Shown: positions 11,639-53,833 of the stretch, in pieces
Layout: each line of letters starts with the position of its first letter
How positions within the stretch are numbered: position 1 is the stretch's first letter
From: Nitrospiraceae bacterium
GTDB taxonomy: Bacteria > Nitrospirota > Thermodesulfovibrionia > UBA6902
NCBI GenBank assembly: GCA_003599425.1
Contig: QZKC01000083.1
Span: 10,372 to 74,371, forward strand
DNA: 64,000 bases
Direction: 5' to 3'
Notes under the pieces: model-generated
Told to the model about the DNA's origin: nothing
What the model saw: the letters and a program-made list of their open reading frames with translations, nothing else
Database searches by the model: none
Position numbers and translations under genes: made by a program

Positions 11639-11659
11639 GAAGTAGAGAGTAGAGAGAAT

Positions 11660-12448: not shown

Positions 12449-13252
12449 TTGAAAAAATATAAATACCTCATAGCACGAAGATTGACGCAGTCGGCCATAC
12501 TGTTTCTCTTCTTTGCCGGCAACGCATCCGGCTGGCAGGTATTAAAAGGCAATCTGAGTTCAGCAAAGGCCTTCGATCTCATTCCGCTTTCTGACCCCTT
12601 TGCTGCCCTGCAGATCACTTCAACAGGGACCTTGCTGGCCTGGAACGCGGTAATCGGCGCTGTGATAATTTTTCTCATATATGCAATTGCAGGGGGAAGA
12701 CTGTTTTGCGGATGGGTCTGTCCTGTAAATATGGTGACTGACCTGGCTAACAGATTAAGGGATGTTTTCATCGGAGATGCTGCCTTGAGATCATGGGAGA
12801 TCAAGAGGGGAATACGATACTGGGTCACAGGATTGTCATTGATACTGTCCGCACTGCTTGGAGTCGCGGCATTTGAATGGATAAGTCCGATAGGAACCCT
12901 GCACAGAGGGATCATTTATGGGATAGGCCTTGGATGGGCCTTTGTAGCAGCCGTGTTCTTTTTTGATCTCTTTGCTGTGAAGAATGGTTTCTGCGGCCAT
13001 GTCTGCCCCCTCGGCGGCTTCTATGCGCTTACAGGCAGGTTCGGTTTTTTGCGCGTCGGCTATGATAAGGATAAGTGCACGTTGTGCATGAAGTGCCTTG
13101 ATATCTGCCCCGAAAAACAGGTCCTTTATATGGTGGGACAGCAGAGCGGAGCCGTTGTATCCGGGGAATGCATAAACTGCGGCAGGTGTATCGAGGTCTG
13201 CCGGGATAATGCCTTGCGGTTCAGCAATATATATTCAAAAAAATTCTCATGA
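12449..13252 (+). CDS. napH: NapH, membrane-bound Fe-S quinol dehydrogenase subunit
   Basis: The TTG start abuts the napG TAA. It has hydrophobic helices with CGWVCP and CGHVCP motifs. The C-terminus carries two ferredoxin motifs, CTLCMKCLDICP and CINCGRCIEVC. Confidence 0.85.
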   Translation: MKKYKYLIARRLTQSAILFLFFAGNASGWQVLKGNLSSAKAFDLIPLSDPFAALQITSTGTLLAWNAVIGAVIIFLIYAIAGGRLFCGWVCPVNMVTDLANRLRDVFIGDAALRSWEIKRGIRYWVTGLSLILSALLGVAAFEWISPIGTLHRGIIYGIGLGWAFVAAVFFFDLFAVKNGFCGHVCPLGGFYALTGRFGFLRVGYDKDKCTLCMKCLDICPEKQVLYMVGQQSGAVVSGECINCGRCIEVCRDNALRFSNIYSKKFS

Positions 13253-13272
13253 ACAAAAAGGAGGATCAAGTC

Positions 13273-13821
13273 ATGTCGAGAAAAAGCCGTACTGTGCTGA
13301 CAATTGTCATTGCCGGAATAATGTCCTTATGCGCAGTCCACACGTATGCGCAGCAGGAAAAAGGATTTTCATCAGAGGATCTCGGCATCAGAAAAGAGTC
13401 ATTATATGACGAGAGCTCTGAAACGCCCCTGCACGGAGAGCCTATCAGAAAAGAGCCCGGAGAGAGCAAGAGGTTTGAGAGGTCCTTTGAGAACAGCCCG
13501 CCGCTAATCCCCCATGACATAACCGGCATGCTGCCTATCGCTCAGACAGATAACCTGTGCATGGGATGTCACATGCCTGCTGAAGCAGGAGCCACAGGCG
13601 CTACACCTATACCCAAATCTCACTTTGTAGACCTCAATACAGGAATGGAACTTGGAGGGAATCTGGATGGAGACCGCTATAACTGCATGCAGTGCCATGT
13701 CATGCAGACCACCATTACTCCGCCAGTAAAGAATCTCTTTAAAGGCGAGTTCAGAGATAAGAAGGGTAACTACAGGTCAAACCTGCTGGATGTCCTGAAT
13801 GAAGGGGTAACGACAGAATAA
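13273..13821 (+). CDS. napB: NapB, dihaem cytochrome c small subunit
   Basis: Signal peptide (TVLTIVIAGIMSLCAVHTYA) and two CxxCH motifs (CMGCH, CMQCH). A strong SD AAGGAGG lies 7 nt before the ATG at 13273. The track start at 13249 overlaps the napH stop as ATGA and is the alternative start. Confidence 0.85.
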   Translation: MSRKSRTVLTIVIAGIMSLCAVHTYAQQEKGFSSEDLGIRKESLYDESSETPLHGEPIRKEPGESKRFERSFENSPPLIPHDITGMLPIAQTDNLCMGCHMPAEAGATGATPIPKSHFVDLNTGMELGGNLDGDRYNCMQCHVMQTTITPPVKNLFKGEFRDKKGNYRSNLLDVLNEGVTTE

Positions 13822-31493: not shown

Positions 31494-32657
31494 TCATCGT
31501 TCTTTGTTCCTCATATCGCTGTCTTCATCATCTCTACCGCTTATATATTCTTTTTCCTTCTTTAATTTTTTCCACTTCTTCTGTTCTTCTTCCCACTTAT
31601 CGCGATCTTTTTCTTTCTTTTTACACTGCTTCTTCCACTTGTCTTCCCATGCTTTCTGCTGCTTCTTCCAGTTTTTTGGACTCCTGGCTTTCCAGTACTT
31701 TTCATCTTTTGGCTCCAAGGTGACTGTTATTGGTTTCTGCTTCTTCCAGTTTTTGTCTGATGCCTTTATGAAACCACCTAAATATCTGTACTCCTCTGAA
31801 TAGTTAACAAAAGCCATGATCAGATAATTGTCTTTCACAAAGTTCGTAAATAGGGCTGTCCCTGTTGTATCTGTAAAGCCCGAGGCAACTGGTACAAGAT
31901 TATTCCATATCAATGAATAAAGCTCGCCCTTGTCGCAGATTTCCGTATATGTTTCTTCATTAATAGCAACTGATATGTCTGATAATCTGTACAACCGGAC
32001 TGGAAGATTGTCCAGTGCCCCATCAATACCACGCACTTTTACAGTAATTAATGATGCAGGCGCTGGTTTTTCAGGTAAGATCTCAAAGGCCACTTTGATC
32101 GATGTTAGGGGATTAAAAACCCTTATTCCCGGATCATCCATACACCCAAGAGTATTTCCGTCCTGATCTATTTCCAGCTTAAAATATGTGACAAGAGGCA
32201 CCTCTATCTCTGCCTTGCAAAAACCGCACTTTGTCAGATCATAAAAAATACGTGCATCATCTATTACTTTATAGCTGCCCCATCCCTGTGGGATGATCTC
32301 AACGGGCGCGCATTCTCGCCCCTGAAACCAGCGTGGAGGGCCAGGCTCTGCATCTCCTCCTATAAAACTGTTACGTATTATGGTCCCGTCAGGTGCTGTA
32401 TATTTTATGAGCAAATAGAATTCCTGCTGCATAAACCCCTGAGGGACTATGAGATCATGCCCGCTGTTATTAACAACATTCACCTGCATCTTTACCGGTT
32501 CTCCCGGCTGATATTCAGCTTTTGACGATACAAGATTGATCGTTATCGGGGAGTCCTGGGCGCTAACCGCCGCGATCAGCATGAATGACAATACTGTACA
32601 ACCCGCGATCTTTCCAAATAATAGTTTCAGTATCTTCATGTATTCCTCTCGCCTCAT
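31494..32657 (-). CDS. secreted protein with Ig/carboxypeptidase-regulatory-like beta-sandwich regions and a Lys/Trp-rich C-terminal tail
   Basis: 387 aa. Its ATG overlaps the stop of the giant gene (ccATGAgg at 32654-32657). A signal peptide follows the second Met. The last 86 aa carry repeated WKKQ-type units. Confidence 0.65.
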   Translation of the reverse strand: MRREEYMKILKLLFGKIAGCTVLSFMLIAAVSAQDSPITINLVSSKAEYQPGEPVKMQVNVVNNSGHDLIVPQGFMQQEFYLLIKYTAPDGTIIRNSFIGGDAEPGPPRWFQGRECAPVEIIPQGWGSYKVIDDARIFYDLTKCGFCKAEIEVPLVTYFKLEIDQDGNTLGCMDDPGIRVFNPLTSIKVAFEILPEKPAPASLITVKVRGIDGALDNLPVRLYRLSDISVAINEETYTEICDKGELYSLIWNNLVPVASGFTDTTGTALFTNFVKDNYLIMAFVNYSEEYRYLGGFIKASDKNWKKQKPITVTLEPKDEKYWKARSPKNWKKQQKAWEDKWKKQCKKKEKDRDKWEEEQKKWKKLKKEKEYISGRDDEDSDMRNKER

Positions 32658-35600
32658 GGCTCGGATTTATTGTTGATCATGATCTGTCCAAGTGCAAAGT
32701 CACTCAGGAAACCAGCCCTGTCCCAGTTGTTGCTGTATGTATACATCAGACATTTGGGATCGCTCGTATGTCCATTAATACCCAGCGCATGACCTATCTC
32801 ATGGAGTATGGTAAAGGTCTGAAGCTCAAGCGGCGTATACTCTTTGGATATAAGAAGAGCATCATCAACGGGTGGGTTTTCCACATGTCCGTCTCCGTCT
32901 GCATCAAAAACGCTGAAATCATAACCAACTGAGTAATCATTACAAACAGATGTGCATGCCGGCTTCCACCCTGTCATCATGTGATCGCCGTCAAGGACGT
33001 CATTTACGATCAGGCTGTCTTCAGATAGAGTTGTTACAGCACCGGTATACGGATTCATATATGGAAGTATCTCAGGACCTTTTCCGTTCTCTCTTCTTTT
33101 ATCTTCAACAAGATCGATGGGATCAAGAAGCCCAACATATGATGGATTTAAGGGGTTTAAAGATTCATCCCTGTAAGGCCTGTTATATACGTAATGCATA
33201 AGGTTCAAATGGTATGTATAAGCACTCTCTGATTTTCCAGAGTAGGGGTTAAAATGGTAGTGCATTCCATTCCCAATATAACTTGCGCCCTTTGTAGACC
33301 AGGCCCATAATCTCGAGGCAAGATGCACGATATATCCGTTACTGTAACCCATGAGTGTGCTCGTGTCTGTTGTGTTATTGGTAACGATCAGGATGTCGAT
33401 GTTAGGCGGTTCAACTATATTCCCCTGACTGTCTAAAAGCTTCCCAAAGGATGGCATGCGTGTTACATCATGCATGTCGATCCCCGCCTTTTCATATGCA
33501 TTGCCTCCTGTTATATCAGTCCTGAACTCCAGGACATCAGGCGCTGTATTGGGTGGACATGAATTGGCGTAATTATCACCACGAACAAAGAGGTCCTTAT
33601 GCTCTGGATTGAGCCTCTGATGATACGTGCCTGTAACATTGCAATTGCTGTCTGTATTTTCAAAGATGATCCCGCGATACTCTTTGAAGTTGCTCAGTCC
33701 GTCACCGATTAACGTATTGGACTGCGTTGTATCGATATCCTTCAGCCCGTCATCAAGGCCAGAGCCGAATGAGAATGGATTATCAAATTGAAATCCGTCA
33801 GCAGAGTGCTGTTTTTCCCATGCATCCGGCAGAGAGTCCCTGTCTGAATCCAGCGGCAATGTCAAGTCACCCTGTACCGATGTACCGTCAGGCGCAGCAG
33901 ATGTGATCCTGACAACAGCCTGGCCTCCGTAATCAAAGGAATACAGATTCACCGATGCCGTGGAAAGGGGGCTTCCGCCTGCATAGACTGTCGCCGCAGT
34001 TACGCTTCTGTTTATTGCGTTAAAGCTGTAATCATTTGTCGATGGCAGACCAGGGTCGTCTGTATCATTCGTCGCAATACCCGGCAGGCTCGTAGTTATC
34101 AGGGCAAATAACACGTTACCTGAAAAGTTAATGTAACTGTTCGTCCTGATATCTTTTAGCCGGACTTCAACCGTGACCGAATTTCCATCTTCAGGCAGCC
34201 ATGTGCCAGTAACATCAGCGCCCGTGCTGTCTTTAGCAGTAAATTCAACTTTATAAAACGACCCGAGAGGAGTAGGGTCGGGGCCGGCAACAATAGGGCC
34301 TGTGCCGTCCGGGTCACGAGGGCCGTCACTTACAAAATCGTTATCAGTGTCAGGGTCTGCTGGAAGAGTACCATAGGTCAACTCATATGAATTTAAATAT
34401 CCATCGCCGTCAATGTCATCATCACAGGCGTTACCAATACCATCACTGTCTATATCACTTTGATCATTAGCGATCAAAGGACAATTATCTGATACGTCCG
34501 GTGTGCTGTCATTATCATCGTCAGGATCACAAACATCTCCATATTTGTCGCTGTCATTGTTGCTCTGAGAACTGTTTGCATTCACTTTACAGTTGTCCTC
34601 GCCGTCCTTGATCCCGTCACCGTCCGTATCAGCTTTATTGGGATCGGTCTCACCCGCATCTACTATACCGTTACCGTTAGCATCTTCTGCCCGGTTTGAA
34701 AGTCCATCACCATCACTGTCAAGGGTTGCAGGGTCTTGGGTTGAACAGTTGTTCCCGGCACAGCTCGCAGTTGTAGTCCCCTGAGAAGGGGCCTGCTGAC
34801 ACGCATCCCCGATCCCGTTATTGTCGGAATCAGCCTGGCTGGCATTTGCAACATTCGGGCAATTGTCCCGTGCGCCTGTCTTGGGACTGTTAAAGTAAAG
34901 ATTGGCACATATCCCGTCTCCATCCGTATCATTATTGGGGTCTTTGGGACATGGATCAGTGCTGTCAAACTGTCCATCATAGTCGCTGTCATCACAGACA
35001 TCCCCGATACCATCCTTGTCCATATCTTTCTGGGCTGCATTGGAGACGTTCGGACAATTGTCCACACGATCATCAATGCCGTCGCCATCGCTGTCCTGTA
35101 TCGCATCAGGCTGACCATCATGGTTGGAATCAAGGAAGTCCAAACCGTCACAGTTTTCATCAATGCCATTAAAATCCATCTCAACTCCCTGAGGATTGAC
35201 GCTGGCAGCAAGATCATCGCAGTCAGTTTTTGTCATAACGAACCCCGGACGTGGTTTTGCGCACGTAGCATACATCCCGCCAAAGCCGTCCCTGTCGAAA
35301 TCGAAATAATATTTGGCAGATGGATTGGGATCATACAATACTGTCATGCACCCTTTCAACGACTCTATCATCGGCAGGTAGGTACAATACGCTTCTTCGT
35401 TCAAGGGGTTGCCTGAAAGATCCAGGCTTACCAAATTCTTCGCATACTCAAGCCCCATCAGGTCTGTGATTCCGCTGTTTCTCAGATCAAGCGCGGTAAA
35501 CGTCAGCATTTGCGCTTCTGTCGGTTCACCATATATACCCAGTTTGGTTTTAATTGCTTCTTTCAGATTTGTATCAGCAATGAATATTGCTGTACCCTCA

Positions 35601-38600
35601 TCCACCTGTCCATTGCAGTTATTATCTACTCCATCACACATTCCATCAGGTTCGCCGGGGTTAATAGTCGGATCTGAGTCGTTGCAATCTACCGTAGAGT
35701 CATATCCGTCTCCATCAAGGTCAATAGTATCAACCATACAGTCACAGTTGTCATCTTTTCCATTGCCCGGTATCTCTGTTATCTCCGGATTGATTGTCGC
35801 ATCAGCGTCATCACAGTCCGTTCCCTCTGTAACATACCCTGCCCGCTGCTCTGCGCACATTGTGTCCACATCTCCGTATCCATCTCCGTCAAAGTCGTAG
35901 TAGTACATTGTCCCTGCAGGCTTCTCATACATTAGTGCTGTACATGCACTGTTTGACTGAATCTGAGGCAAATAGGTGCAGAAGGCCTCATTGTCCAGAG
36001 GGTTGCCGGTGAGGTCCAGGCTCTTCAGGTTCTTTGCATACTCAAGTCCCATCAACTGCTCTATTCCAAGATAGCTCGCATCCAATGCTGTAAGCTGAAG
36101 CATCAGCGCCTCAGTAGGATCTCCATGTATGCCGAGCTTCTTCTTGATCGCATTTCTCAGATTCGTATCCGCTATGAATACCGCTATCTCTTCGTCTGTC
36201 TCACCGTTGCAGTTATTGTCCACTCCATTACATACACCGTCAGGCTCTCCGGGATTGATCGTCGGGTCCAGATCATTACAGTCATTACCTTTGGCTGCGG
36301 CTACAAAACCGGCACGCGAATACGCGCACGTTGCCAGCATTCCTCCATATCCATCTGCATCGTAATCAGCCTTGTAGTTTGGCGCAGGGTTGGGATCATA
36401 GATGATATTTGCGCACCCGTTTTCGGACTCTATCATCGGCAGATATGTGCAATAGGCCTCGGCATCCAGCGGGTTGCCGGAAAGGTTCAGGCTCACGAGG
36501 TTCTTTGCATACTCAAGGCCCATCAGATCAGTGATTCCTCTGTTGCTCAAATCCAGTACCGTAAGCGTCAGTATCTCTTCTTCTGTCGGGTCACCTGTTA
36601 TTCCCAGAACTTCTTTAATAGCGTTCTTCAGATTTGTGTCCGCTATGAATACCGACATCTCCTCATCCACCTGTCCATTGCAGTTGTTATCTATTCCATT
36701 ACATACTCCATCCGATGCTCCGGGATGAATAGTCGGATCCAGATCATTACAGTCATTGCCTTTGGCTGCGGCTACAAAACCGGCACGCGAATACGCGCAT
36801 GTTGCCAGCATTCCTCCGTATCCGTCCGCATCATAATCAGCCTTGTAGTTTGGTGCAGGGTTTGGGTCATAACTTATATTCGCGCACCCATTCACAAATT
36901 CGATCATAGGCAGGTATTTGCAATAAGCCTCGCTGTCAAGCGGGTTGCCCGTGAGATTAAGGCTCTTCAGGTTCTTCGCATACTCAAGTCCCATAAGATC
37001 AGTGATCCCTCTGTTGCTCAGATCAAGTACCGTGAGCGTCAGCATCTGCTCCTCTGTGGGATCACCCGTTATCCCCAGTGCCTCTTTTATGGCATTCTTC
37101 AGATTTGTGTCAGCAATGAATACTGTAATCTCGTCATCAATCTGTCCATTGCAGTTGTCGTCTATTCCATTGCAATCTCCATCCGATGCTCCGGGATGAA
37201 TGGTCGGGTCCAGATCATTACAGTCCGTTCCGCCTGATGCAATTGAATCATATCCGTCATTGTCAGCATCTGGATCACATGTATCGCCAATCTCATCGCC
37301 GTCAAAATCTGACTGGTCAGTGTTGGCTATATTCGGACAATTATCTTTGCAGTCGGCAACTCCGTCACCATCAGTATCTGTATCTGGAATTCCGCAACCG
37401 CATATGCCAGGCTCTGTCTTTAACGGATCATCAGGACACTGGTCAATGCAATTTTCAGTATCGCCAAAATCGATCATTCCGTCACAGTCATTGTCTAATC
37501 CATCAGAGCAACTCTGCTCAGGAGTCTCTGTGGGGTTGCTTGGCACACAGGTATCTGTTTGAATTCCGACCGTACAGGTCAATTGTCCGACTGATGCGCA
37601 TACTCCAACTCCACACGTTATCGGCAAACCGTACCAGTCTTCACCGGAACCGTCAATCGTTGTATCATTGCAATCGTTATTCTTTCCATCACAAATTTCA
37701 AGTGCTCCGGGATATATCTTATTGTCGCTGTCATTGCAGTCATCACCCGGATATGTCTGGCACCCGGCAGGGACACAAGCAGTTCCCGTACAGGAGTCAG
37801 ATACTGATGAACTGACAAGTCCGTCATTGTCGCTGTCGCAATAGTAGGAAATTGAATAGCCGGTCAATTTATACAGGGATCCAGTAGTCCCACTTTGTGC
37901 ATCTACATCTAAAGCAGCAAGCTTTCCGACACCTACTTGGTACCACTCAAGATCAGTAACAGCATAGTCTGGCAATGATACACACAGGTTGGATTCAACG
38001 ATATTGTTTTGCGCATTTGACTGATACTTACTGTCATACGTTGCCCATAGAATAACACCGGTCAATGACGGATCAATTCCGTATACACTCTTAAGATCAG
38101 GATCAAGTTTATCCCATTCGCGAATCAGAACAAAATTCGTTGGTTCAAATGCATTAAAAAACTGTCCGTCAGTAAAAGTGTCAAACGTCATTGGTGTGAG
38201 ATTGGATGAAACACCGTCTTCGACGTAATCGTATATGGTTACAGAGCTTCCATCGTTATAACTAACCAAATAATTATTCGCGGTTCCTTTGCTGCATGCT
38301 GGATTACCTGAAAATTCAGAACATTCAAATATAGTTTCTGTATATGTATCAAATGGATCAACAGCATTCGTATAGGTCCAGAAACTCCCTAACCCAAGAG
38401 GGAAGTAGGGTGCAAAGCTTATCGGGTTACTTAAAACACCTTCATCTATCTGCCCGTCACAGTCGTTATCCAGACCGTCGCAGATCTCAGCCTGCGGCTG
38501 GTTATTCTGTACGCACGTCTGAGTTCCAGATGCACAGGTTAATGTTCCTGCTGAACATATTCCCGGCACTCCAGTATCACATACTCCATTTGTTGCGCCG

Positions 38601-41600
38601 TTACAGTCAGAGTCTGCACAGTCAGTAGATCCATCCCCGTCATTGTCAATATTGTCAAAACAGTTTGTCTCAGTTGACGTCTGGCAGTTAGTATCTGCCA
38701 AATCTATCAATCCATCACAATCATTATCCACTGCATCACTGCATGTAGGATCATCTGCCGGCCCTTCTGTCTGAGGCGTTCCCGGCGTGCAAGTGTCTGT
38801 TTGAATCCCTCCTGTACAGGTGAACTGCCCAGTTGACGCACATATTCCTACTCCGCATGTTGTCGGGACCCCGTACCAGTTCTCACCTGAACCGTCAGCA
38901 GCAGTGAGATTATCGCAGTCATTGATCTTGCCGTCGCATAACTCTGGAGCACCTGGATAAATAGTATTATCGTTATCATTGCAATCACCCTGATTTTCCG
39001 TGAATCCGTCGCCATCGTTATCTATATCATTAGAATTACAAACGTCATTTATTCCTCCAGTTCCGGACAGAGGTACATATACATTTGGATTATTCGGAGC
39101 ATTCGAAGGGATATTCAATATTCCTGTGTATCTGATAGAGGTTGAAGGCTGAAATCTTACCCTGATCGTGCAGGATGCCGAGGGAACTAAAGTGCTATCT
39201 GAACAATTATCAGTACCTGCCACAATGCTGAATGTATCTGAAGGAGATGAAATTGTGCCGATCGTCAGATTCTGTATCCCGGTGTTACTTACTGTGATCG
39301 TGTTGTCCCAGAACTCTCCCGTATTCACACATCCAAACTCTATGTTTGTTGGAGTTACCGTAATAGCCGGTTCAATCAAAGCGAGATCATTTACAGTTAT
39401 CACTTCACCAGATTCAACAACGTCATTTCCATCAGGAGTACATGTGACTATCATTGTATCTGAATATAAGTTGTCCTCATCTGCCTGCACTGTCCACGTT
39501 CCTCCCATGATAGGCAGACGGTAGTATCCATCAAAGTCAGTATCAGTTCGGGTATTGATCCAGCCAACAGATGTCTGACTGGGACCATTCAGTGCATTAT
39601 CAGTCCAAGCACTGATCCCTACATCCGATGCAGGGGTTCCGTCACCCCTGTATACCCTGCCTTCTATTGCGCAGTCAGCATAATATGCATAAAGCGTTAC
39701 CGGCTTGTGCTCTCCATCAGTGAGTCCTGTGACATCTACATCCTGAGATGGGACCATCTCTTTAGGTTCGTTATTGATCTTCACGGGGTAGTCGTGACAG
39801 TTCAGGCACGTGCCGACCCTCCAGTCACCTGCATTAAGTCCTACCACTGCATGTCCCGTCGCATTGGTGTAATCAGCATTGCCCAGACTCTGGAGCACAG
39901 GGTCTGAAGTATTGATCCTTCTGGCATAGCAGAGAGCACCTTCAACAGGCAATGCCCCATATTCATCCATGACATTACATTCAAGCCATGCTGTTTCCTT
40001 ATGCAATACAAAATGAACAGTTGCGGGAGGAATGACATTTACAGAATCATAATAATTATTGGCAGGAATCTGGGGGCCAAAATATCCGGGAGCAATATCA
40101 TCATCAATTGCGATATTCCATGTCACTCCGGACAGAACTGGTATTGTATAGTTCCCGTTGGCATCAGTAAGTACACCAACCCCGTTGCCGCCAGGGACGT
40201 CTGCATCAACTTCTGTCCCCCAAATGGGCTTGCCCGTTCCGTATTCTGTTACCGTCCCCGTGATCTGTGAATCTGAAGGTGCTAAATAAAGGTTAAATCC
40301 TGTTATGTCAGAATTGAAAATTATTGCAGTAACAGACCGTTCAAGGTATCCAGTTTTCTGGGCACCAATTTCATATCTTCCTGAGCGCGGGATATGCAGG
40401 GTGTAAGCGCCATTGCTGTCAGTTAGCGCGGCTGATACCCCTTGTCCTGTTGTTACATCTTCTGCAACAACAATGGCCTCGGGCACAGGTGTTGTAGTTC
40501 CTTCCTCATAAACGACCCCCTGGATCTTATACGGAGCCGGGACTATCGGATCGGTCATCGTAAAGTCTACTGAAGCTGTATTGCCGCAGGAATTTTTTAC
40601 TGTCATGGTTAACGTCGTACCAGGCAGGAGATAGCCATCTGCATTTCCAAAGGGATTAAAGACTGTCGTAATATTTATGTCTGCCGGGTCTGCATCTTGA
40701 GTCAACGAATCGTGATCATTCGCTGCATTGTCATATATAACTGCCATAATTTCATCGTTGCCGAGTTTAAACTCGACCGCGCCGCCATCTTCCGCAGCCT
40801 GTGTGTATAATGTGAAGCCGGTCCTTGTATCAGCAGGGGCTGAAGAAGGGCCGACGGATAAGGTGATGGGAGGACATGCCTGATATACAAAGCTTTCTGT
40901 GCTTACTGAATAATTGCTTCCGCTGTCCAGTGCGAAAACCTTAAATGTATAAGTATTCCCCGGTATGAGAGGTGGGCCATCGTATAACAACCCTGAGTTA
41001 GTCAAGTTACCTGCATCCCATAAATACTCAGAAGATTCATTCAGCAGCATAACTGTATAGGCATATCCCGCGCCAATACCTGACCATGAAAAATAAGGCG
41101 AACCCATAACTGTCTGTCCGTTGGAAGGTGAGAGATTTGCCGGGACATTATTTACAAAACGTTTAATACTGTCTGTCTTGACCGTGGTATTAAAAGGGTC
41201 GGTTATGGTTATTGTGTAGACAATTGGGAATGGATAAGGCGGCAGACTGCCTGTGCTGAGAGTGATAACCTTTTCCCATGACTTCCTAAAGGTATTGTAA
41301 TCAAGAGTGATTAAACCATTTATGCCGGGGCCTTCAACGGTAACAGATGTTGCGAGACGACCGGGGTCCTCAACGAATATTCTCGCTCCGTATTCATCCT
41401 GCCCCCCCGGATTTTTCCAGTGGCCTGATACGGCTTCCGCATGATAATCATACCATGGGTTCGGATTTACTATTGTGCCGTCAACGAGGGTTATGTCCAC
41501 TCCGTGGACAGCAGTCCCCCCGCTTATGACAACCGGAGTAATATTGCCGCATCCGCTGTAAATGCCCCACGGGTCTGTGGGCTGAAGATCAGTACCCGTC

Positions 41601-44600
41601 TGGATCACCGAAACCACATAGTAGGTACCGTCGGGAAGGCCAGAAAGTGTATAAGCGCCAAGAGAAGGAATTTCAGTGGCGACAGCCGGATTACCCGGGT
41701 TTTGTGGAGAACAGTTGATAGGCGATGTGAATGCCGCAACATAAATATTTCCGCTCTGCGTTCCGCTGTATGAGATAGCGCCGGTGATGGAACCAGCACT
41801 TACAGCAGGCTCAACGAACCTTCGGAAGTTGCTACCGTCAAGATCTGCGAAGTAAAGTTCCCTCGCAGAATCAAAACCGTAGATAGACTGATCAATGGGC
41901 GGGACAATGGACTGCAGGTCTGCTATCTGTGCTCCTGAACTGTTGTAGAGGGCGCGATGCGTCAGGCTGACCAGATTGCCTGATTGGGTGTAGAAAAGGA
42001 TGTTCTCATCCTGACACAGGTCAGAAGGACAGAGATTCGTCTCAGTACCATTGGCCAATACAACATATAATGGTGTTGACTGAAATCCGGGATCAGACTC
42101 GGGCAGACCGTTAAATACGTGATAGTAGAAGAGGAAACCATTAGAATCGTTTCTGGGAGAGAGCATATTCCATTCACCCAGATATTCGCTCTTTATGATT
42201 GTCCTGCCCGTGCCGTCGGCATTCATCATTATCAGCCTTTCATAGTGGCTTGTGAAATAGCCTGCATCCTGCCTGTATTCAATCGCAATGATCTTTGATC
42301 TGTCCGGTGATAGCCAGAACATTGCTAATCTGTACGGCGCTACAGGGGACGCGATGGTAACAATGTCAGTGCCGTCGGCATTCATGCTCTTGACCTCGCC
42401 GTTATCATTGAAAATCACCTTGTCATTGTTGTCAAAGTAGGCAGCAGTATCATTGTTTTCTGCATGAACAGCTACGGGAGTTTTGGTGCCGGAAGGAATA
42501 TCATAAATATAAATGGTCGATGAGACATCATCGAATTCCCTGAAGACGACCTTGGTCTTCAGTGAGTTCATGCTTCCGAATGTAAACAGGTTATTGCAAT
42601 TGTCTTTCAAAGTGCTCAGCCCTGCTACCCCGGGATCATAAAGATAAAGGTCCAACCTTGTGTCCTCCCCGCAGTTTACTGAATCAAATGCGATCATCGG
42701 GATCATTTCCAGCGCGAGATTTGCACAATTCGTGCATCTTGCGCCAACAAGAATCTCTCTGTGAGAGAGTTGATTTGAATCAAAGCTATGATTGATGATT
42801 ATCGTATTCCCGTTGTTCCCTATCGCTCCCGCATAGGAAGGCGCAAGATCACCAATTGATAAACCAAAACTGCCATCAGAAGAAACAGAGATATTTAAGC
42901 CAACACTCCCAAATTGAATATTTCCATCTCTTTGTCCTTTATATGATATTGTGCAGTTTCCACTACTGTCACAAGTCAAAGTGCTAAATGAAGCAAAAAA
43001 ACTGGTACTGCTATCATCTCCGAAGCCTGCTAAAGCCCATGTCCCTGCAAGGTCAGCGGTGGAGTAGGTCTTGTCACCTTTCTTCATAATGAAAGTAGCT
43101 TGCCAATCAGTAGCAATATCCAATGATGCAGTTAATGCAAGCGTGCCGTCTCCTGTCATTACCCCTTTGGCATTTCCACTGTTAAGCAAAATTGAGCCAT
43201 CAGGGTTTACAGAATATGTATCTGTATCGTTATCAGTCAAAATTATTCCATCGCTGTTAGCCGTATTGGCATATAGATAACTATCTACCCCATCAATCAA
43301 GGCGGTGCCTGACCATACAATATGATATCCGGGCCAGTTAGTTCCTGTGCTATCATGGTCATAGCCAATAGCATAATACTCCCCGCTCAAATCGGCACTG
43401 GTATAAGTCTTCGTCTCATCCATCCTTATCAAGACTCTTGCCCTCTGTCTGCTACTCTGGTCAGTGCCGTCCATGATCATCATATTTCCATTATCAGAAA
43501 TCGCATATCTTCTAATTCTTGTCACTGATGGATATGTAGATACAACCGTAATGCTTCCGTCTGCGTTTGCTGTGACAGTGTAGGAATAGTCCTCTATTGC
43601 AGAACTTAATATTCCATTATCATTGTCCTGGTGGGTATCGGTTCCCGTGCCATCCGCGTTAAAGGTAAGAGTTCCCCCTCGTACATGCCATTTTCCATCG
43701 TTATCATGCCGTAAACGCCCATATCCCCATTTGCCGATTATGGTAAATGTTGATGCTGATTCACATCCCGGATCATTTGCGTCTATCAAATCATCACAGT
43801 CATTGTCCAGTCCGTCATTACATGCAGGGGCTCCAGCAGGGCCTTCTGCCTGCGGCGTGCCGGGAGTGCAGGTATCATTCCAAGTTCCTGCAACGCAGGT
43901 CGCGACTCCTGTGCTCTCGCAAATTCCTTTTCCGCATACTGACGTATAACTAAGATTTTCATCTGTCTGACCGTTACAGTTGTTGTCTCTACCGTCGCAT
44001 ATCTCAGGAGCGCCGGGATAAACAGATGCATCATTATCGTCACAGTCCACTTCACCGCATGCACCGCCTTCAATGGCATAACCATCATGGTCCGAGTCTG
44101 TACAACTATTATCACATGCATCTCCTACACCATCCCCGTCAGCATCTGCCTGATCGGGATTGAAAACATCGGGACAGTTGTCATCAATATCTCTAACACC
44201 GTCATTATCCTGGTCGCTAATTTGTAGCACTTGAATTTCTCCAGATGACAAGGCACGGTTGTAAACCATAAGGTTGTCGACTTCACCATAAAATGTTCTG
44301 CCATTCGAGTAATCCGTTAATGTAACCGTCTTATCATTCCCGGTATTTAGAGCAAAATCTGCAGGCACGGATACATCTTCTAACCGAATGCCATCAAAAA
44401 ACGTGATAATATTTCTTCTCGTAAAGTCAACGGATACTACTACAGTGTGCCACTGATTAATATTCAGGATGGTTCCCGAATAAATATGTTCAAGATAGCC
44501 AGATTGAACACTCGGATCATTATTCAAAGTCAGCATAAGTTGATTAGTGTTAGTCCACTTTAGTCTGATCCACCTGTATGACTGACCGCCGATTACAATG

Positions 44601-45469
44601 GTTTTATAATTACCACCCAGATTATAGGGCATGAATTCTACACTGATGGTAAAGGCATCAAAATTAAAATCAGGGACTGTAGCTATTGCCGTATAACCGA
44701 AATATAGGCCATTAAGATACAGATTGTCGTTATTGAGAAACTGAGTATTTTCGAGATACATTGGATCATTGATTCCCGTGCTGTCATTGGCATTACCGTT
44801 AAACTTGTAAAATGCGATCAATCCATAATTCGTATCACACGCATCACCAATCCCATCGCCATCAGTATCAGCCTGGCCAGGGTTGTAAATATCTGGACAG
44901 TTATCGCATGTCTCGCCTACGCCATCCCCATCAGTATCGATGGCAGAAAGGCATTTATCCAGTTTTGAAACAAAGGCGTCAAAGTAATTGTATGATGTAT
45001 CATAAGCGCCAGCAGTTACTGGATAATCGGATGCAGAGGTTTGTCCTGTTATGAACACGTCGCCTGTTTGAGAATCCAGCGCAGCGGCTTTTGCAGAATC
45101 ATTCCCGCTTCCACCAATAAAAGTTGATGAGAGGAGGTCTGTCAGGCCATTGTTAAGCCTTGAGATAATGACATCATTGCCATAGCATATGCCGCCAGTT
45201 CCACAATAAGTATCATACGCTCCTGCAGTAACTGGATAATTGGATGAAGATGTCAGACCTGTTATGAAGACATCCCCTGTAAGGGAATCTATTGCGATGG
45301 CGTTTGCGGAATCAGCGTTGTTTCCACCGATAAATGTTGATGAGACAAGGCCTGCAAGTCCACTGCTAAGCCTTGAAACAAAAACGTCACTGCCTCCATT
45401 AAGAGATGCATCATAAACTCCGGCAGTAGTAGGATAATCAGATGAAGATGTTGCCCCACCAATAAACAT
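32654..45469 (-). CDS. giant secreted multidomain protein, main body (4,271 codons from the first ATG; the frame stays open upstream to the TGA at 45941-45943)
   Basis: SBBP-like beta-propeller repeats (IGG..D.A.AIAID..G..FITG.TSS.DYP.T.GAYD). TSP3 repeats (DTDGDGVGETCDNCPDIYNPGQADTDGDGIGDACD). A LamG-like block (LIAFYKFNGNANDS...LMVYNRALSSGEIQ). MopE-like motifs (DCDDNDASVYPGAPEICDGRDNNCNGQTDE). PD40/TolB-like and CarboxypepD_reg-like segments. Four tandem LRR-type modules. A C-terminal HEIGHALGINGH motif (32768-32803). Confidence 0.85.
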   Translation of the reverse strand: MFIGGATSSSDYPTTAGVYDASLNGGSDVFVSRLSSGLAGLVSSTFIGGNNADSANAIAIDSLTGDVFITGLTSSSNYPVTAGAYDTYCGTGGICYGNDVIISRLNNGLTDLLSSTFIGGSGNDSAKAAALDSQTGDVFITGQTSASDYPVTAGAYDTSYNYFDAFVSKLDKCLSAIDTDGDGVGETCDNCPDIYNPGQADTDGDGIGDACDTNYGLIAFYKFNGNANDSTGINDPMYLENTQFLNNDNLYLNGLYFGYTAIATVPDFNFDAFTISVEFMPYNLGGNYKTIVIGGQSYRWIRLKWTNTNQLMLTLNNDPSVQSGYLEHIYSGTILNINQWHTVVVSVDFTRRNIITFFDGIRLEDVSVPADFALNTGNDKTVTLTDYSNGRTFYGEVDNLMVYNRALSSGEIQVLQISDQDNDGVRDIDDNCPDVFNPDQADADGDGVGDACDNSCTDSDHDGYAIEGGACGEVDCDDNDASVYPGAPEICDGRDNNCNGQTDENLSYTSVCGKGICESTGVATCVAGTWNDTCTPGTPQAEGPAGAPACNDGLDNDCDDLIDANDPGCESASTFTIIGKWGYGRLRHDNDGKWHVRGGTLTFNADGTGTDTHQDNDNGILSSAIEDYSYTVTANADGSITVVSTYPSVTRIRRYAISDNGNMMIMDGTDQSSRQRARVLIRMDETKTYTSADLSGEYYAIGYDHDSTGTNWPGYHIVWSGTALIDGVDSYLYANTANSDGIILTDNDTDTYSVNPDGSILLNSGNAKGVMTGDGTLALTASLDIATDWQATFIMKKGDKTYSTADLAGTWALAGFGDDSSTSFFASFSTLTCDSSGNCTISYKGQRDGNIQFGSVGLNISVSSDGSFGLSIGDLAPSYAGAIGNNGNTIIINHSFDSNQLSHREILVGARCTNCANLALEMIPMIAFDSVNCGEDTRLDLYLYDPGVAGLSTLKDNCNNLFTFGSMNSLKTKVVFREFDDVSSTIYIYDIPSGTKTPVAVHAENNDTAAYFDNNDKVIFNDNGEVKSMNADGTDIVTIASPVAPYRLAMFWLSPDRSKIIAIEYRQDAGYFTSHYERLIMMNADGTGRTIIKSEYLGEWNMLSPRNDSNGFLFYYHVFNGLPESDPGFQSTPLYVVLANGTETNLCPSDLCQDENILFYTQSGNLVSLTHRALYNSSGAQIADLQSIVPPIDQSIYGFDSARELYFADLDGSNFRRFVEPAVSAGSITGAISYSGTQSGNIYVAAFTSPINCSPQNPGNPAVATEIPSLGAYTLSGLPDGTYYVVSVIQTGTDLQPTDPWGIYSGCGNITPVVISGGTAVHGVDITLVDGTIVNPNPWYDYHAEAVSGHWKNPGGQDEYGARIFVEDPGRLATSVTVEGPGINGLITLDYNTFRKSWEKVITLSTGSLPPYPFPIVYTITITDPFNTTVKTDSIKRFVNNVPANLSPSNGQTVMGSPYFSWSGIGAGYAYTVMLLNESSEYLWDAGNLTNSGLLYDGPPLIPGNTYTFKVFALDSGSNYSVSTESFVYQACPPITLSVGPSSAPADTRTGFTLYTQAAEDGGAVEFKLGNDEIMAVIYDNAANDHDSLTQDADPADINITTVFNPFGNADGYLLPGTTLTMTVKNSCGNTASVDFTMTDPIVPAPYKIQGVVYEEGTTTPVPEAIVVAEDVTTGQGVSAALTDSNGAYTLHIPRSGRYEIGAQKTGYLERSVTAIIFNSDITGFNLYLAPSDSQITGTVTEYGTGKPIWGTEVDADVPGGNGVGVLTDANGNYTIPVLSGVTWNIAIDDDIAPGYFGPQIPANNYYDSVNVIPPATVHFVLHKETAWLECNVMDEYGALPVEGALCYARRINTSDPVLQSLGNADYTNATGHAVVGLNAGDWRVGTCLNCHDYPVKINNEPKEMVPSQDVDVTGLTDGEHKPVTLYAYYADCAIEGRVYRGDGTPASDVGISAWTDNALNGPSQTSVGWINTRTDTDFDGYYRLPIMGGTWTVQADEDNLYSDTMIVTCTPDGNDVVESGEVITVNDLALIEPAITVTPTNIEFGCVNTGEFWDNTITVSNTGIQNLTIGTISSPSDTFSIVAGTDNCSDSTLVPSASCTIRVRFQPSTSIRYTGILNIPSNAPNNPNVYVPLSGTGGINDVCNSNDIDNDGDGFTENQGDCNDNDNTIYPGAPELCDGKINDCDNLTAADGSGENWYGVPTTCGVGICASTGQFTCTGGIQTDTCTPGTPQTEGPADDPTCSDAVDNDCDGLIDLADTNCQTSTETNCFDNIDNDGDGSTDCADSDCNGATNGVCDTGVPGICSAGTLTCASGTQTCVQNNQPQAEICDGLDNDCDGQIDEGVLSNPISFAPYFPLGLGSFWTYTNAVDPFDTYTETIFECSEFSGNPACSKGTANNYLVSYNDGSSVTIYDYVEDGVSSNLTPMTFDTFTDGQFFNAFEPTNFVLIREWDKLDPDLKSVYGIDPSLTGVILWATYDSKYQSNAQNNIVESNLCVSLPDYAVTDLEWYQVGVGKLAALDVDAQSGTTGSLYKLTGYSISYYCDSDNDGLVSSSVSDSCTGTACVPAGCQTYPGDDCNDSDNKIYPGALEICDGKNNDCNDTTIDGSGEDWYGLPITCGVGVCASVGQLTCTVGIQTDTCVPSNPTETPEQSCSDGLDNDCDGMIDFGDTENCIDQCPDDPLKTEPGICGCGIPDTDTDGDGVADCKDNCPNIANTDQSDFDGDEIGDTCDPDADNDGYDSIASGGTDCNDLDPTIHPGASDGDCNGIDDNCNGQIDDEITVFIADTNLKNAIKEALGITGDPTEEQMLTLTVLDLSNRGITDLMGLEYAKNLKSLNLTGNPLDSEAYCKYLPMIEFVNGCANISYDPNPAPNYKADYDADGYGGMLATCAYSRAGFVAAAKGNDCNDLDPTIHPGASDGVCNGIDNNCNGQVDEEMSVFIADTNLKNAIKEVLGITGDPTEEEILTLTVLDLSNRGITDLMGLEYAKNLVSLNLSGNPLDAEAYCTYLPMIESENGCANIIYDPNPAPNYKADYDADGYGGMLATCAYSRAGFVAAAKGNDCNDLDPTINPGEPDGVCNGVDNNCNGETDEEIAVFIADTNLRNAIKKKLGIHGDPTEALMLQLTALDASYLGIEQLMGLEYAKNLKSLDLTGNPLDNEAFCTYLPQIQSNSACTALMYEKPAGTMYYYDFDGDGYGDVDTMCAEQRAGYVTEGTDCDDADATINPEITEIPGNGKDDNCDCMVDTIDLDGDGYDSTVDCNDSDPTINPGEPDGMCDGVDNNCNGQVDEGTAIFIADTNLKEAIKTKLGIYGEPTEAQMLTFTALDLRNSGITDLMGLEYAKNLVSLDLSGNPLNEEAYCTYLPMIESLKGCMTVLYDPNPSAKYYFDFDRDGFGGMYATCAKPRPGFVMTKTDCDDLAASVNPQGVEMDFNGIDENCDGLDFLDSNHDGQPDAIQDSDGDGIDDRVDNCPNVSNAAQKDMDKDGIGDVCDDSDYDGQFDSTDPCPKDPNNDTDGDGICANLYFNSPKTGARDNCPNVANASQADSDNNGIGDACQQAPSQGTTTASCAGNNCSTQDPATLDSDGDGLSNRAEDANGNGIVDAGETDPNKADTDGDGIKDGEDNCKVNANSSQSNNDSDKYGDVCDPDDDNDSTPDVSDNCPLIANDQSDIDSDGIGNACDDDIDGDGYLNSYELTYGTLPADPDTDNDFVSDGPRDPDGTGPIVAGPDPTPLGSFYKVEFTAKDSTGADVTGTWLPEDGNSVTVEVRLKDIRTNSYINFSGNVLFALITTSLPGIATNDTDDPGLPSTNDYSFNAINRSVTAATVYAGGSPLSTASVNLYSFDYGGQAVVRITSAAPDGTSVQGDLTLPLDSDRDSLPDAWEKQHSADGFQFDNPFSFGSGLDDGLKDIDTTQSNTLIGDGLSNFKEYRGIIFENTDSNCNVTGTYHQRLNPEHKDLFVRGDNYANSCPPNTAPDVLEFRTDITGGNAYEKAGIDMHDVTRMPSFGKLLDSQGNIVEPPNIDILIVTNNTTDTSTLMGYSNGYIVHLASRLWAWSTKGASYIGNGMHYHFNPYSGKSESAYTYHLNLMHYVYNRPYRDESLNPLNPSYVGLLDPIDLVEDKRRENGKGPEILPYMNPYTGAVTTLSEDSLIVNDVLDGDHMMTGWKPACTSVCNDYSVGYDFSVFDADGDGHVENPPVDDALLISKEYTPLELQTFTILHEIGHALGINGHTSDPKCLMYTYSNNWDRAGFLSDFALGQIMINNKSEP
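35213..37222 (-). repeat. four tandem coding modules (471, 471, 594 and about 474 bp) inside the giant gene
   Basis: The anchor cagatcattaca recurs at 37211-37222, 36740-36751 and 36269-36280, an exact 471-bp period. Each unit encodes a MopE-like Cys motif, VFIADTNLKNAIKxxLGIxGDPTE...LDLSNRGITDLMGLEYAKNLxSLxLxGNPL (LRR-like) and a DADGYGG segment. Confidence 0.9.
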
Positions 45470-45940
45470 ATCGCCTGTCGTGGAGTCTATGGCAAGGGCA
45501 TTTGCGGAATCCGTGCTGCTTCCACCAATAAATGTAGATGCAAGGAGGCTTGTAAGATCACTATTGAGCCTTGATATAAAAGCATCACTTCCGCCATTAA
45601 AAGAGGTATCATAGCTCCCGGCAGTTGAAGGATAATTGGACGATAGCGTACTTCCCGAAATTATTGCATTTCCTGAGGAATCTATAGCGAGTGCATAAGT
45701 ATAATCAGAATTATTACCTCCAATGAATGTCGATGCGAGCAGATCAAGATTACTGTCAAACTTTGAAACAAAGGCATCTGAGGTTTCAATATCAGCGCCA
45801 TACAGATAACTGCATATTACGCCATTCCCGCAAACTCTGTCATATGCGCCCTGAGTAGTAGGGAAATCATCTGAATGTGTATACCCGGTGACATATACGC
45901 TATCCCCAGGGCCAAGTGCAAGGGCCCTGCCTACATCACT

Positions 45941-47140
45941 TCAGCCAAAACCACCGATCATCGTCGATGCTTCAAGAACGGAAAGATCATTGCTGAATTT
46001 TGATACAACAACATCAAAAGAGCTCTTGTACGCTACACCCGTTGTAACAGGATAATTAGCTGACCTTGTCCCTCCAGAGATATAAACTTTTCCTGAAGAA
46101 TCTATGGCCATGGCATTGCCTTCTTCTGTCTCGCTTCCGCCGATAACTGTTGAGGCAAGGAGGACAGAAAGATCGTTACTGAACTTCCTTATGAATATGT
46201 CCGCACCTGTGGTCCCTGCCACAAAAACATTACCATTTGCGTCGATGGCAATGGCGTTACCGATATCCGCAGCAGCTTCGCCTGCAAATGTTGAGGCCAG
46301 AAGCGGGTCAATGATGAGAGGTTTTGTTCTATCATAAGTCCCAACCTCAAAACCGTATGTGACCGAATCCTCGGGTACATTGTATGCAACGTTTATAAAT
46401 TTCTTCTTCCCCTGCTCTTCCTGATAGGCAACAGGCTTCGTCATTTTAAGGATTCCCAGTTCCGTCTCTATCTCAAGCTCCCCGTCTTTGTTTACACGTA
46501 ATCCTTTCACGCCTTCCAGGGATAGCTTAATGTCTTCAACCTCTGCTCCTCGGTTCACAGTAAAGACCTTCTCCACGGAGATTCCGTATGTCCTCAGATT
46601 AAGCTCTATGCCCTTATAGACCTCTCCCAGATTTACTTCCTGCCATGCGGGTATGTTTGACTTCCACTCTTCCCTGGCACCAATAAAGTAATGAACGCTG
46701 GTCTCTGGTTTTTTCAAACCCTTCATGGTGATAGGCTCAGGACATAACAAAGTCTCTTTGACAGCAACAGACTTCTCAACCCTATTATGATCTCCTGAGT
46801 CGCAGTTGCCTGAATTTGTTGTTGGTGGGAGATGTTCTTTCCTGATAAAGGTATAAACCATATCCCCTTTTTCATTTAAAACTACTGTGCCGTCAAATAA
46901 GGCGGCGTAAAATTTGACGGAGGGATCCTTAATCTGTCCCTGATTTTCTATAAAAGGAATCTGGCGGGATAATACGTGCTTCATCAGTAAGCTTTTATCA
47001 TTGCCTGACTGATTGTTCACAATATGACGGACGGAAGATTTCGCCTCAGAGTGATTTACATAAAGAAAAACTGCAACAGATGTAACAAACAAGAGTAAAA
47101 CTATTTTCCCAATGCCCTTCATAGTTAGCACCCGCACCAT
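45941..47140 (-). CDS. N-terminal part of the giant protein (signal peptide, N-terminal domain and first SBBP repeats), ended by an in-frame TGA
   Basis: 399 codons with signal peptide KGIGKIVLLLFVTSVAVFLYVNHSEA. The frame is the same as 32654..45469. The sequence stops mid-repeat (...STMIGGFG-TGA-SDVGRALALGPGDSVYVTGYTHSDDFPTTQGAYD...). Confidence 0.8.
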   Translation of the reverse strand: MVRVLTMKGIGKIVLLLFVTSVAVFLYVNHSEAKSSVRHIVNNQSGNDKSLLMKHVLSRQIPFIENQGQIKDPSVKFYAALFDGTVVLNEKGDMVYTFIRKEHLPPTTNSGNCDSGDHNRVEKSVAVKETLLCPEPITMKGLKKPETSVHYFIGAREEWKSNIPAWQEVNLGEVYKGIELNLRTYGISVEKVFTVNRGAEVEDIKLSLEGVKGLRVNKDGELEIETELGILKMTKPVAYQEEQGKKKFINVAYNVPEDSVTYGFEVGTYDRTKPLIIDPLLASTFAGEAAADIGNAIAIDANGNVFVAGTTGADIFIRKFSNDLSVLLASTVIGGSETEEGNAMAIDSSGKVYISGGTRSANYPVTTGVAYKSSFDVVVSKFSNDLSVLEASTMIGGFG

Positions 47141-51072: not shown

Positions 51073-51309
51073 TTATTTATTTAATAATTCGTCTATCTTC
51101 CCCTGATCAAACCCGGTTACGGCTTCATTATTGATCAATGTTACCGGAAGGGTCCTGATCCCCATTTTCCCTAGATCGTAAATGGCGGTGGGATCAGTTG
51201 CAAGATTGCGTTCAGTGTATGTTACGCCTTTTTGTGAAAGATACTCTTTCACTTTATTACAGTAAATTCAACCGACCTGACTGAAGACAATGATATTTTT
51301 TTCTGCCAT
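51073..51309 (-). CDS. glutaredoxin-like (YruB/NrdH-type) candidate selenoprotein with a U-x-x-C redox motif
   Basis: Not in the ORF track. ATG at 51309 with SD GAGGGG upstream. Translation: MAEKNIIVFSQVG-[TGA 51268-51270]-IYCNKVKEYLSQKGVTYTERNLATDPTAIYDLGKMGIRTLPVTLINNEAVTGFDQGKIDELLNK-TAA (51073-51075). It has thioredoxin-fold landmarks (beta1 IIVF, cis-Pro TLPV, GF). The TGA sits exactly at the first Cys of CxxC. Confidence 0.7.
51234..51252 (-). promoter_or_regulatory. candidate bacterial SECIS hairpin
   Basis: The mRNA reads UGA-auuuacuguaauaaa-GUGAAAG-AGUAU-CUUUCAC. This is a perfect 7-bp stem starting 15 nt after the UGA. The 5-nt apical loop has G at position 2 followed by U. Confidence 0.55.
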
Positions 51310-53099: not shown

Positions 53100-53765
53100 C
53101 TATACCCTTCTGATCTCTACAAGGGTCAGATCATCCACCCTTTCTGCGCCCTTTGAAAAATCATTTACATGATCGACCACTCTGTGAATGATCTGCCTGT
53201 CCTTCATATGCTTTTTTATGAACCTGGTTATCCTGTCAAACCCTATTCTCTTACCGCGTCTGTCTTTCGCATCAAAAATCCCGTCAGTTAATAATATCAG
53301 CCTGTCGCCTTTTTTTAGCGACAGGGCTGTAACAGGATAGTCTGCCGGCAATATTCCGAGAGGCGGCCCTGCCGGTACGCTCATCACCTTTGCCTTTCCC
53401 TCGGAAAGTTGTCTGCTGCCGCGTCCTCAATGATGAGCGGTTTCAGGTTTTCCGCAACCCAGCCCGCGATACCTTTCCCCATATCAAGGACGACCTTCTC
53501 TTTTAATGTTTTCGACATTGCTCTTTGACCGCACAGCGACCTCAAATTCGAGCTTATTCGTTCCCCTGTTATAAAGAAGGATCGAACACGCTTCCGCATT
53601 CATTACCTTTTCCGCCTTCTCCATGACAAGGGTGAGGAGTTTGTTAAAATCAAGCGTTGATGATATGATCGCAGAGTCCTCTATAAGGGTGCTGAGATCT
53701 TGCACCTTTTTTTCGAGAGCTGCAAGATAGTCCCTCGGGACAGCCACCACAGCTTTTTTGGGCAT
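53100..53765 (-). pseudogene. decayed GAF-PP2C (RsbU/SpoIIE-type) phosphatase gene: one frameshift plus an internal deletion
   Basis: Three consecutive ORF fragments cover it. The first is 53484-53765, the GAF N-terminal part ...KLEFEVAV. The second is 53384-53599, where a +1 shift near 53533 continues as ...KVVLDMGKGIAGWVAENLKPLIIEDAAADNF. The third is 53100-53387, which holds only the last ~95 aa of a PP2C domain (PLGILPADYPVTALSLKKGDRLILLTDGIFDA...DDLTLVEIR). The rest of GAF and most of PP2C are absent. Confidence 0.65.
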
Positions 53766-53833
53766 GCATATGGGATAACAGGTTTCAATAAAGATTTCAA
53801 GACAAATGATCGTTTAAGCAGGCAATAATTTTT

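Follow-up and report, generated by a model that had tools for sequence, protein, structure and literature searches.

An in-frame UGA followed by a conserved hairpin is probably recoded, and possibly read as selenocysteine, in a giant surface-protein gene of a Nitrospiraceae bacterium

Does a stop codon that falls inside the reading frame of a giant gene mark a damaged gene, the border between two genes, or a codon that the ribosome is meant to read? The question is raised by a 64,000-nucleotide stretch of DNA, hereafter the window, from a Nitrospiraceae bacterium (GenBank assembly GCA_003599425.1, contig QZKC01000083.1, positions 10,372 to 74,371), whose minus strand carries a gene of 4,828 codons (32654..47140) that is broken, when read through, by one internal UGA at 45941..45943, with a GC-rich hairpin shortly behind it. 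We find the same codon in the same column, followed by the same hairpin, in two further lineages, and consider it highly probable that this UGA is a maintained, translated recoding site within one gene. That it is decoded as selenocysteine (Sec) by means of an atypical selenocysteine insertion sequence (SECIS) element is the reading that we favour, albeit tentatively and at somewhat less than an even chance. The predicted product is a single exported giant surface protein of about 4,800 residues and not two proteins.

The source genome is a metagenome-assembled genome (MAG) of 2.9 Mb in 106 contigs, 89.6% complete. On the minus strand the site reads ...ATC GGT GGT TTT GGC TGA AGT GAT GTA GGC AGG GCC CTT GCA CTT GGC CCT GGG..., and re-reading the sequence bears out that this TGA splits the giant gene. 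It separates an upstream open reading frame (ORF) of 399 codons (45941..47140, minus strand) from a downstream ORF (32654..45469, minus strand), both in frame with it, and is the sole internal stop among the 4,828 codons of the joined frame, whose own terminator is also TGA; the earlier hand translation, which had met no further stop before the downstream ATG, is thereby upheld. The next possible start (ATG, GTG or TTG) in the window is the ATG at 45469, 157 codons on, and these 157 codons (45470..45940, minus strand) evolve as coding sequence even though they contain none of the three. Public annotations divide the gene and do not join the parts, one source giving proteins of 393 and 4,271 aa and another a protein of 399 aa with only a 607-aa C-terminal piece from a non-ATG start (P0075). 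If the codon is read, the tryptic peptide across the junction is FSNDLSVLEASTMIGGFG-X-SDVGR, where X is the UGA-encoded residue.

The original prediction had placed the TGA inside an SBBP repeat, at a column that holds Asn, Thr, Glu, Ser or Ala in the sister repeats. The repeat assignment stands, but the column does not, since in an alignment to the repeat profile that comprises 626 SBBP units (91 homologous loci) the TGA falls on the second Gly of the consensus GGSGxD. The residues found at this column are chiefly G (194), S (123), D (83), N (68), A (39) and Y (35), with Cys and Trp in none of the units, and the UGA-bearing repeat is longer than its sister repeats by one residue.

When the 399-aa product was used as a query, two proteins came up that break off at the same residues, namely P0077 (437 aa, 57% identical), which ends ...SNDLSTLEASTIIGGFG, and P0091 (440 aa, 45% identical), which ends ...SNDLSTLEASTMLGGFG. 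The comparison with orthologs that the original prediction had called for could thus be made: the respective metagenome contigs, L112 (49 kb) and L113 (10 kb), hold TGA in the same column, within ...EASTxxGGFG-TGA-xDxxRALAxG..., and the frame beyond it extends for 4,740 codons in L112 and at least 2,143 in L113, with no further in-frame stop as far as the sequence goes. Around the site, the L113 form recurs unchanged in three more independently assembled samples (L117-L119), four in total. From the codon through the hairpin the window reads UGA AGUGAUGUAGG CAGGGCC CUUGCACUU GGCCCUG, L112 reads UGA AGCGAUAUGGG CAGGGCC CUUGCUAUU GGCCCUG and L113 reads UGA AACGAUAUGAG CAGGGCC CUUGCAAUC GGCUCUG; the nucleotide signature of the site is GGNTTYGGNTGANNNGAYNNNNGCAGGGCCCTTGC and its protein signature SKFSNDLSxLEASTxxGGFG*xD. 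All three lineages have Asp at codon +2, which fits the GGxxxD consensus of the repeats. At codon +3 the window has GTA, whereas L112 and L113 have an in-frame ATG (UGA NNN GAU AUG) at which gene callers start the downstream gene.

Beyond these lineages, searches with the junction protein in 41 related genomes and then in 400 genomes of the phylum found no TGA-bearing ortholog, the matches all being uninterrupted, paralog-like genes of at most 57% identity. An exact-pattern scan of metagenome and genome contigs with the 44 bases that surround the codon, which was itself left as NNN, gave 0 matches, and a long-protein search likewise found no close ortholog. Broad profile searches (metagenome and genome loci, a hidden Markov model against 1.84 billion representatives, and a third homology search) added no further clade members and were dominated by multi-repeat SBBP proteins.

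The pattern of substitution indicates that the sequence on both sides of the UGA is translated. Pairwise synonymous divergence (dS) among the three lineages exceeds 1 and is saturated, and the ratio of non-synonymous to synonymous divergence (dN/dS) against L112 and L113 is 0.16-0.17 upstream of the UGA and 0.05-0.18 in codons +1..+157. When single-base changes specific to the window were counted at codons where L112 and L113 agree, synonymous and non-synonymous changes stood at 26:2 upstream, 9:3 in codons +1..+157 and 12:1 in codons +158..+399. Purifying selection, equally strong on either side of the UGA, thus acts on the segment behind it in the window lineage as well, so that this segment should be translated there too, and the Asp conserved at codon +2 in the three lineages argues that translation passes through the UGA rather than restarting downstream of it.

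The hairpin CAGGGCC-cuugcacuu-GGCCCUG (45907..45929, minus strand), reported earlier at 11 nt past the TGA, is present as described. Its upper stem of 7 bp pairs CAGGGCC (45929-45923) with GGCCCUG (45913-45907) around a 9-nt loop (45922-45914) that opens with a conserved CUUGC, the apical loop beginning 18 nt past the UGA. The computed free energy (dG) is -11.9 kcal/mol in the window, and the 7-bp fold ranges from -11.9 to -13.9 kcal/mol; the stem is identical in L112, and in L113 a single C-to-U change yields a G·U pair in the RNAalifold consensus. The same consensus contains a possible lower stem of 4 bp (45897..45936, minus strand; 45933-45936 with 45897-45900), with one compensatory change from A-U to G-C, a weak signal from three sequences only.

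At the RNA level, a block of 13 nt, GCAGGGCCCUUGC (45918..45930, minus strand), comprises the 5' arm and the first five loop bases and is invariant in the three lineages. No invariant run in the 3,528-nt three-way codon alignment is longer; the runners-up there reach 8 nt, and invariance extends to 31% of nucleotides and 14.5% of third positions. Over the hairpin, the 8-codon windows contain 6 invariant third positions, a number reached by 7 of 1,169 windows (top 0.6%), and the codons AGG, GCC, CTT and GGC (R, A, L and G) are the same in the three lineages, against a background of 30%. Such invariance of loop and 5' arm looks more like a protein-binding site than a mere roadblock. A rival 5-bp hairpin with a GCC triloop falls exactly in the invariant block, and sequence invariance by itself cannot separate it from the 7-bp fold; at -2.8 kcal/mol it cannot compete with -11.9 and was rejected as the element. 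The site matched no Rfam family even at E up to 10, no further copy of the 13-mer was found in the genome, and inspection by eye of the sequence downstream in the three lineages found no GCAAG that could pair with the loop CUUGC in a pseudoknot. A second patch of unusually conserved third positions lies at about 45760-45783 (codons +55 to +67), where GATGCCTTTGTTTCAAAGTTTGAC (DAFVSKFD) is common to the three lineages; it could be due to codon preference in a strongly conserved strand or to a further RNA element.

The architecture of the protein bears on what a chain ending at the UGA would be. A signal-peptide-like N terminus, MVRVLTMKGIGKIVLLLFVTSVAVFLYVNHSEA (47042..47140, minus strand; judged by eye from the translation), is followed by a DUF7948 domain (residues 63-280; 46301..46954, minus strand; Pfam PF25778, E = 4e-47) and by a predicted seven-bladed SBBP β-propeller (residues 271-760; 44861..46330, minus strand). 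Further modules comprise metal-binding repeats of the TSP3/MopE type, LamG, CarboxypepD_reg, Ig-like and leucine-rich repeat (LRR) domains and a C-terminal, matrixin-like HExxH motif. Both PF25778 and PF06739 exceed their Pfam cut-offs, which places the protein among the DUF7948/SBBP surface proteins, with which it shares the N-terminal order of signal peptide, DUF7948 and seven-bladed SBBP propeller; such a head, followed by variable adhesin-like modules, is common to hundreds of uninterrupted proteins. What sets the three-lineage clade apart from these is the UGA in blade 3, found only here, together with the signature DVVVSKFSNDLSxLEASTxxGGFG-UGA-xD and a loop with one residue more than usual.

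An AlphaFold2 model of residues 271-760, computed from a 46-sequence alignment with the TGA set to Gly for the model only, has 28 strands in seven blades (predicted local distance difference test score (pLDDT) 88.8, predicted template-modelling score (pTM) 0.89). In it the UGA is residue 130 of the modelled segment and lies in an inter-strand loop at the start of blade 3, so that a chain stopped there would be expected to have two blades and a propeller that could not close. The best match in the Protein Data Bank is the SBBP-type propeller of CylK (7fh6, 7ron), which has the same fold (E = 2e-23, template-modelling (TM) score 0.71, 21% identity). As CylK is a Friedel-Crafts alkylating enzyme, propellers of this type can be catalytic and not solely adhesive.

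The genome is equipped for the insertion of Sec. It encodes tRNA-Sec (contig C85, 14888-14985), SelB (349 bits), SelA (626 bits) and a SelD that itself contains Sec, and a UCA anticodon was seen in no further tRNA of it. As yardsticks, five selenoprotein genes were picked by eye, by ORF geometry and codon-usage score, from a genome-wide scan for interrupted ORFs that was too noisy for counting pseudogenes: FdhA (ARI-U-HS; C12:32487), SelD (C40:5887, minus strand), a peroxiredoxin (FV-U-ATE; C1:13895), a rhodanese fused to a rubrerythrin-like domain (Y-U-KKGVRS; C24:5861, minus strand) and a GCAxxG_C_C protein (C61:10265). The window itself holds the gene of a small glutaredoxin-like selenoprotein (51073..51309, minus strand; VG-U-IYC), with the UGA (51268-51270) at the first active-site position and a SECIS of 8 bp whose GUA loop opens 23 nt past it. 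The SECIS elements of FdhA and the peroxiredoxin have the common core CUCU-GGC-AGAG, and the six true SECIS loops of the genome (GGC three times, AGUUCG, UGGAGU and GUA) open 17-23 nt past their UGA.

How far does the candidate hairpin fit this machinery? The published rules for bacterial SECIS (bSECIS) elements call for a loop of 3-9 nt, a stem of 4-16 bp, 16-37 nt from the UGA to the apical loop, a minimum free energy of at most -7.5 kcal/mol and, in sequence, a G in one of the first two loop positions (PMC13188914). With a loop of 9 nt, a stem of 7 bp, a distance of 18 nt and -11.9 kcal/mol, the candidate agrees with the rules of size, spacing and energy. The 11 nt that separate the UGA from its upper stem match the figure known for fdhF of E. 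coli, and to our knowledge the insertion of Sec is the only bacterial mechanism that couples a UGA with a hairpin at such spacing. Like the bacterial selenoprotein genes with a SECIS inside the ORF (E. coli fdhF; PMC13188914), this gene has a conserved in-frame UGA within conserved flanking protein, a stem-loop just downstream, and a host with SelA, SelB, SelD, tRNA-Sec and other selenoproteins; unlike them, it has neither an early loop G, nor a Cys homolog, nor a redox motif at the site, and here the codon sits in a β-propeller loop of a giant exported multidomain surface protein.

We tentatively envisage the following course of events. When the ribosome arrives at the UGA, the hairpin would lie at the entrance of the mRNA channel and serve as a bacterial SECIS, to which SelB·GTP·Sec-tRNA(Sec) would bind and from which it would deliver Sec, giving a product that reads ...GGFG-Sec-SD... 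in a blade-connecting loop of the propeller. Where delivery fails, RF2 would terminate the chain and leave a 399-residue fragment that is probably unable to fold. We favour the insertion of Sec because it alone accounts for the long retention of UGA itself over a sense codon; if it is correct, the family would be a selenoprotein family without a Cys counterpart. The original prediction had ranked Sec as the least likely option, on the grounds that the loop lacks the G-U feature and the site is not a redox motif. Its point about the loop holds up against the six SECIS elements of the genome, but the ranking has to be reversed, as a conserved UGA in a genome with the full machinery makes Sec the leading candidate.

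Several observations nevertheless weigh against Sec or against the hairpin as such. The loops CUUGCACUU, CUUGCUAUU and CUUGCAAUC open with CU and thus break the bSECIS rule of an early G, whereas in each of the six SECIS elements of the genome a G with G or U behind it falls among the first three loop positions; the folds that would place a G early in the loop, namely the 5-bp GCC-triloop stem and one with an extra U-A pair inside the loop, are both weak. Some SECIS elements do depart from the bSECIS model, and nearly all known selenoproteins have Cys homologs (PMC13188914). Here Cys occupies the UGA column in 0 of 626 repeat units, and its occurrence in the GG...D loop of 7 of 2,744 repeats equals the background frequency; the site lacks a redox motif and its context is extracellular. 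By itself the hairpin is not above chance: against dinucleotide shuffles the 46 nt behind the TGA show no excess stability (z = +0.36, or +0.44 when 67 nt of context are included), a 40-nt window of equal stability comes after 1.7% of the codons of the gene, and in 5 of 45 TGA-free homologs the corresponding stretch folds as well or better. It rises above chance because it is conserved beside a conserved TGA in other lineages. Only three UGA-bearing lineages are known in all, so that the constraint on the RNA, with a covariation of one G·U and one compensatory pair, is suggestive and no proof. A literature search found no paper linking SBBP proteins to Sec, and NCBIfam has no model for the junction, the only match named for a selenoprotein being NF045500, which falls on the TSP3 repeats and below its cut-off.

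Among the other explanations, a nonsense mutation of recent date, with the gene on its way to becoming a pseudogene, or a mistake in the consensus or assembly of the MAG was favoured while no ortholog was known; it was dropped once P0077 and P0091 had been found, and we now regard it as scarcely credible. It could draw on a MAG of 106 contigs that is incomplete, on a contig that is a single assembly deposited twice, on a real multi-lesion pseudogene of the GAF-PP2C type 7 kb away and on a TGA that is one base from the Gly (GGA) or Ser (TCA) codons that are the consensus of the column. These points are outweighed by the recurrence of the same stop, position and hairpin in two lineages at 45-57% amino-acid identity with saturated synonymous sites and by the fourfold independent assembly of the L113 form, which do away with both a fresh mutation and an error; a shared-template artefact for L112 and L113 is excluded by a dS above 1. 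The stop is not specific to one lineage, selection is not relaxed (downstream dN/dS about 0.05-0.2, and three identical independent events are not credible) and no second lesion occurs downstream in any of the three lineages (4,428 codons in the window, at least 2,000 in L112 and at least 2,145 in L113). Together, purifying selection and the shared UGA leave no room for an error, a newly arisen nonsense mutation or a pseudogene. An alternative genetic code with UGA as Trp or Gly was also rejected, as TGA terminates 456 of 1,237 open frames that span 300 codons or more, ends this gene too and occurs in frame only once within its 4,828 codons. A deliberate split is better placed but still improbable: termination at the UGA with reinitiation two codons on would yield two products, one secreted and about 400 aa long, the other giant and devoid of a signal peptide, in line with the ATG at codon +3 of L112 and L113 and with a Shine-Dalgarno-like GG(N)GG string upstream of the UGA. 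That string, however, consists of the Gly-Gly codons found in every repeat and lies about 16 nt from the ATG, the conserved motif Asp at codon +2 precedes the ATG, and a start codon with a ribosome-binding site beside the stop is not common to all members, the window having GTA at +3 and no start for 157 codons in a segment that is nonetheless under purifying selection. The split would also be predicted to cut one compact seven-bladed propeller into two chains and to leave extracellular domains without an export signal. Of what had originally been put forward for this locus, it is stimulated readthrough or recoding of the UGA that finds support, from the conserved codon and hairpin and from selection on both sides.

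Recoding need not involve Sec, and we consider programmed or leaky readthrough without it the main competitor, possible though distinctly less probable than Sec. A near-cognate tRNA, most likely tRNA-Trp and possibly aided by the hairpin, would decode a fraction of the UGA passes, so that mostly the 399-residue product and a small, tuned amount of the costly full-length protein were made, with a hairpin of sequence-specific 5' arm and loop (GCAGGGCCCUUGC) setting the ratio of secreted short fragment to giant surface protein. The conservation of the UGA and the evidence of translation fit this equally well, and it accounts for a loop without the G of the SelB type and for the absence of Cys homologs. 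It also agrees with the finding that in E. coli UGA is the leakiest stop and is read mainly as Trp, the more so with G-rich sequence downstream (PMC11126739). The predicted arrangement resembles programmed readthrough of UGA by tRNA-Trp in phage Qbeta (A1) and viral signals made of a stop and a structure, which have the same long, selected extension and, in the viral signals, the same RNA structure downstream near the mRNA entrance of the ribosome. Known viral stimulators of readthrough have a structure where the mRNA enters its channel, and the hairpin is placed likewise. The known cases are viral, however, and for that of Qbeta no dependence on a hairpin is known; in the present gene 92% of the protein is extension, and the short form stops within a folded domain. 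We know of no established case of hairpin-stimulated, Sec-independent UGA readthrough in a bacterial chromosomal gene, and a literature search for one returned none. Moreover, a pure roadblock needs no invariance of the CUUGC loop and 5' arm at synonymous sites, Trp occupies the UGA column in 0 of 626 repeats, the short product would end within a propeller blade and is unlikely to fold, and lower expression needs no stop codon that is kept over a dS above 1.

The neighbourhood of the gene differs between the lineages. A gene for a Glucodextran_B and CsgG-like protein lies directly upstream of the UGA-bearing giant gene in L112 (3744-5711) and L117 (226-1257), and a PEP-CTERM protein is encoded upstream as well in L113 and L117, whereas the upstream neighbour in the window is a PAS-LuxR regulator. 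Seven kilobases from the giant gene, a GAF-PP2C/SpoIIE-type phosphatase gene (53100-53813, minus strand) is spread over three frames and has lost most of its phosphatase domain; it is a genuine multi-lesion pseudogene. Outside the window, the contig that carries tRNA-Sec (C85, about 9916-13441, plus strand) has a 63-codon stretch with a Walker-A motif (GDPGMGKTT), one in-frame TAG and then a frame of 1,110 codons that contains no start codon for 68 codons, and Pfam finds no domain across the stop; this locus may be a large NTPase gene interrupted by a nonsense codon.

As matters stand, gene callers and public annotations break up this gene, like its two known relatives, into a 'hypothetical' product of about 400 aa and a giant one that lacks a signal peptide. 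If the UGA is not read as Sec, the locus would be a bacterial case of structure-associated programmed UGA readthrough, which has so far been mainly viral and eukaryotic, and would provide the first structure-dependent, Sec-independent signal for stop-codon readthrough in a cellular bacterial gene. If it is read as Sec, the selenoproteome would gain an exported β-propeller protein that is neither thioredoxin-like nor built around a redox motif. Searches for Cys/Sec pairs would be blind to such a family for want of a Cys counterpart and the standard loop-G filter would reject its SECIS, so that families of this kind would be systematically missed.

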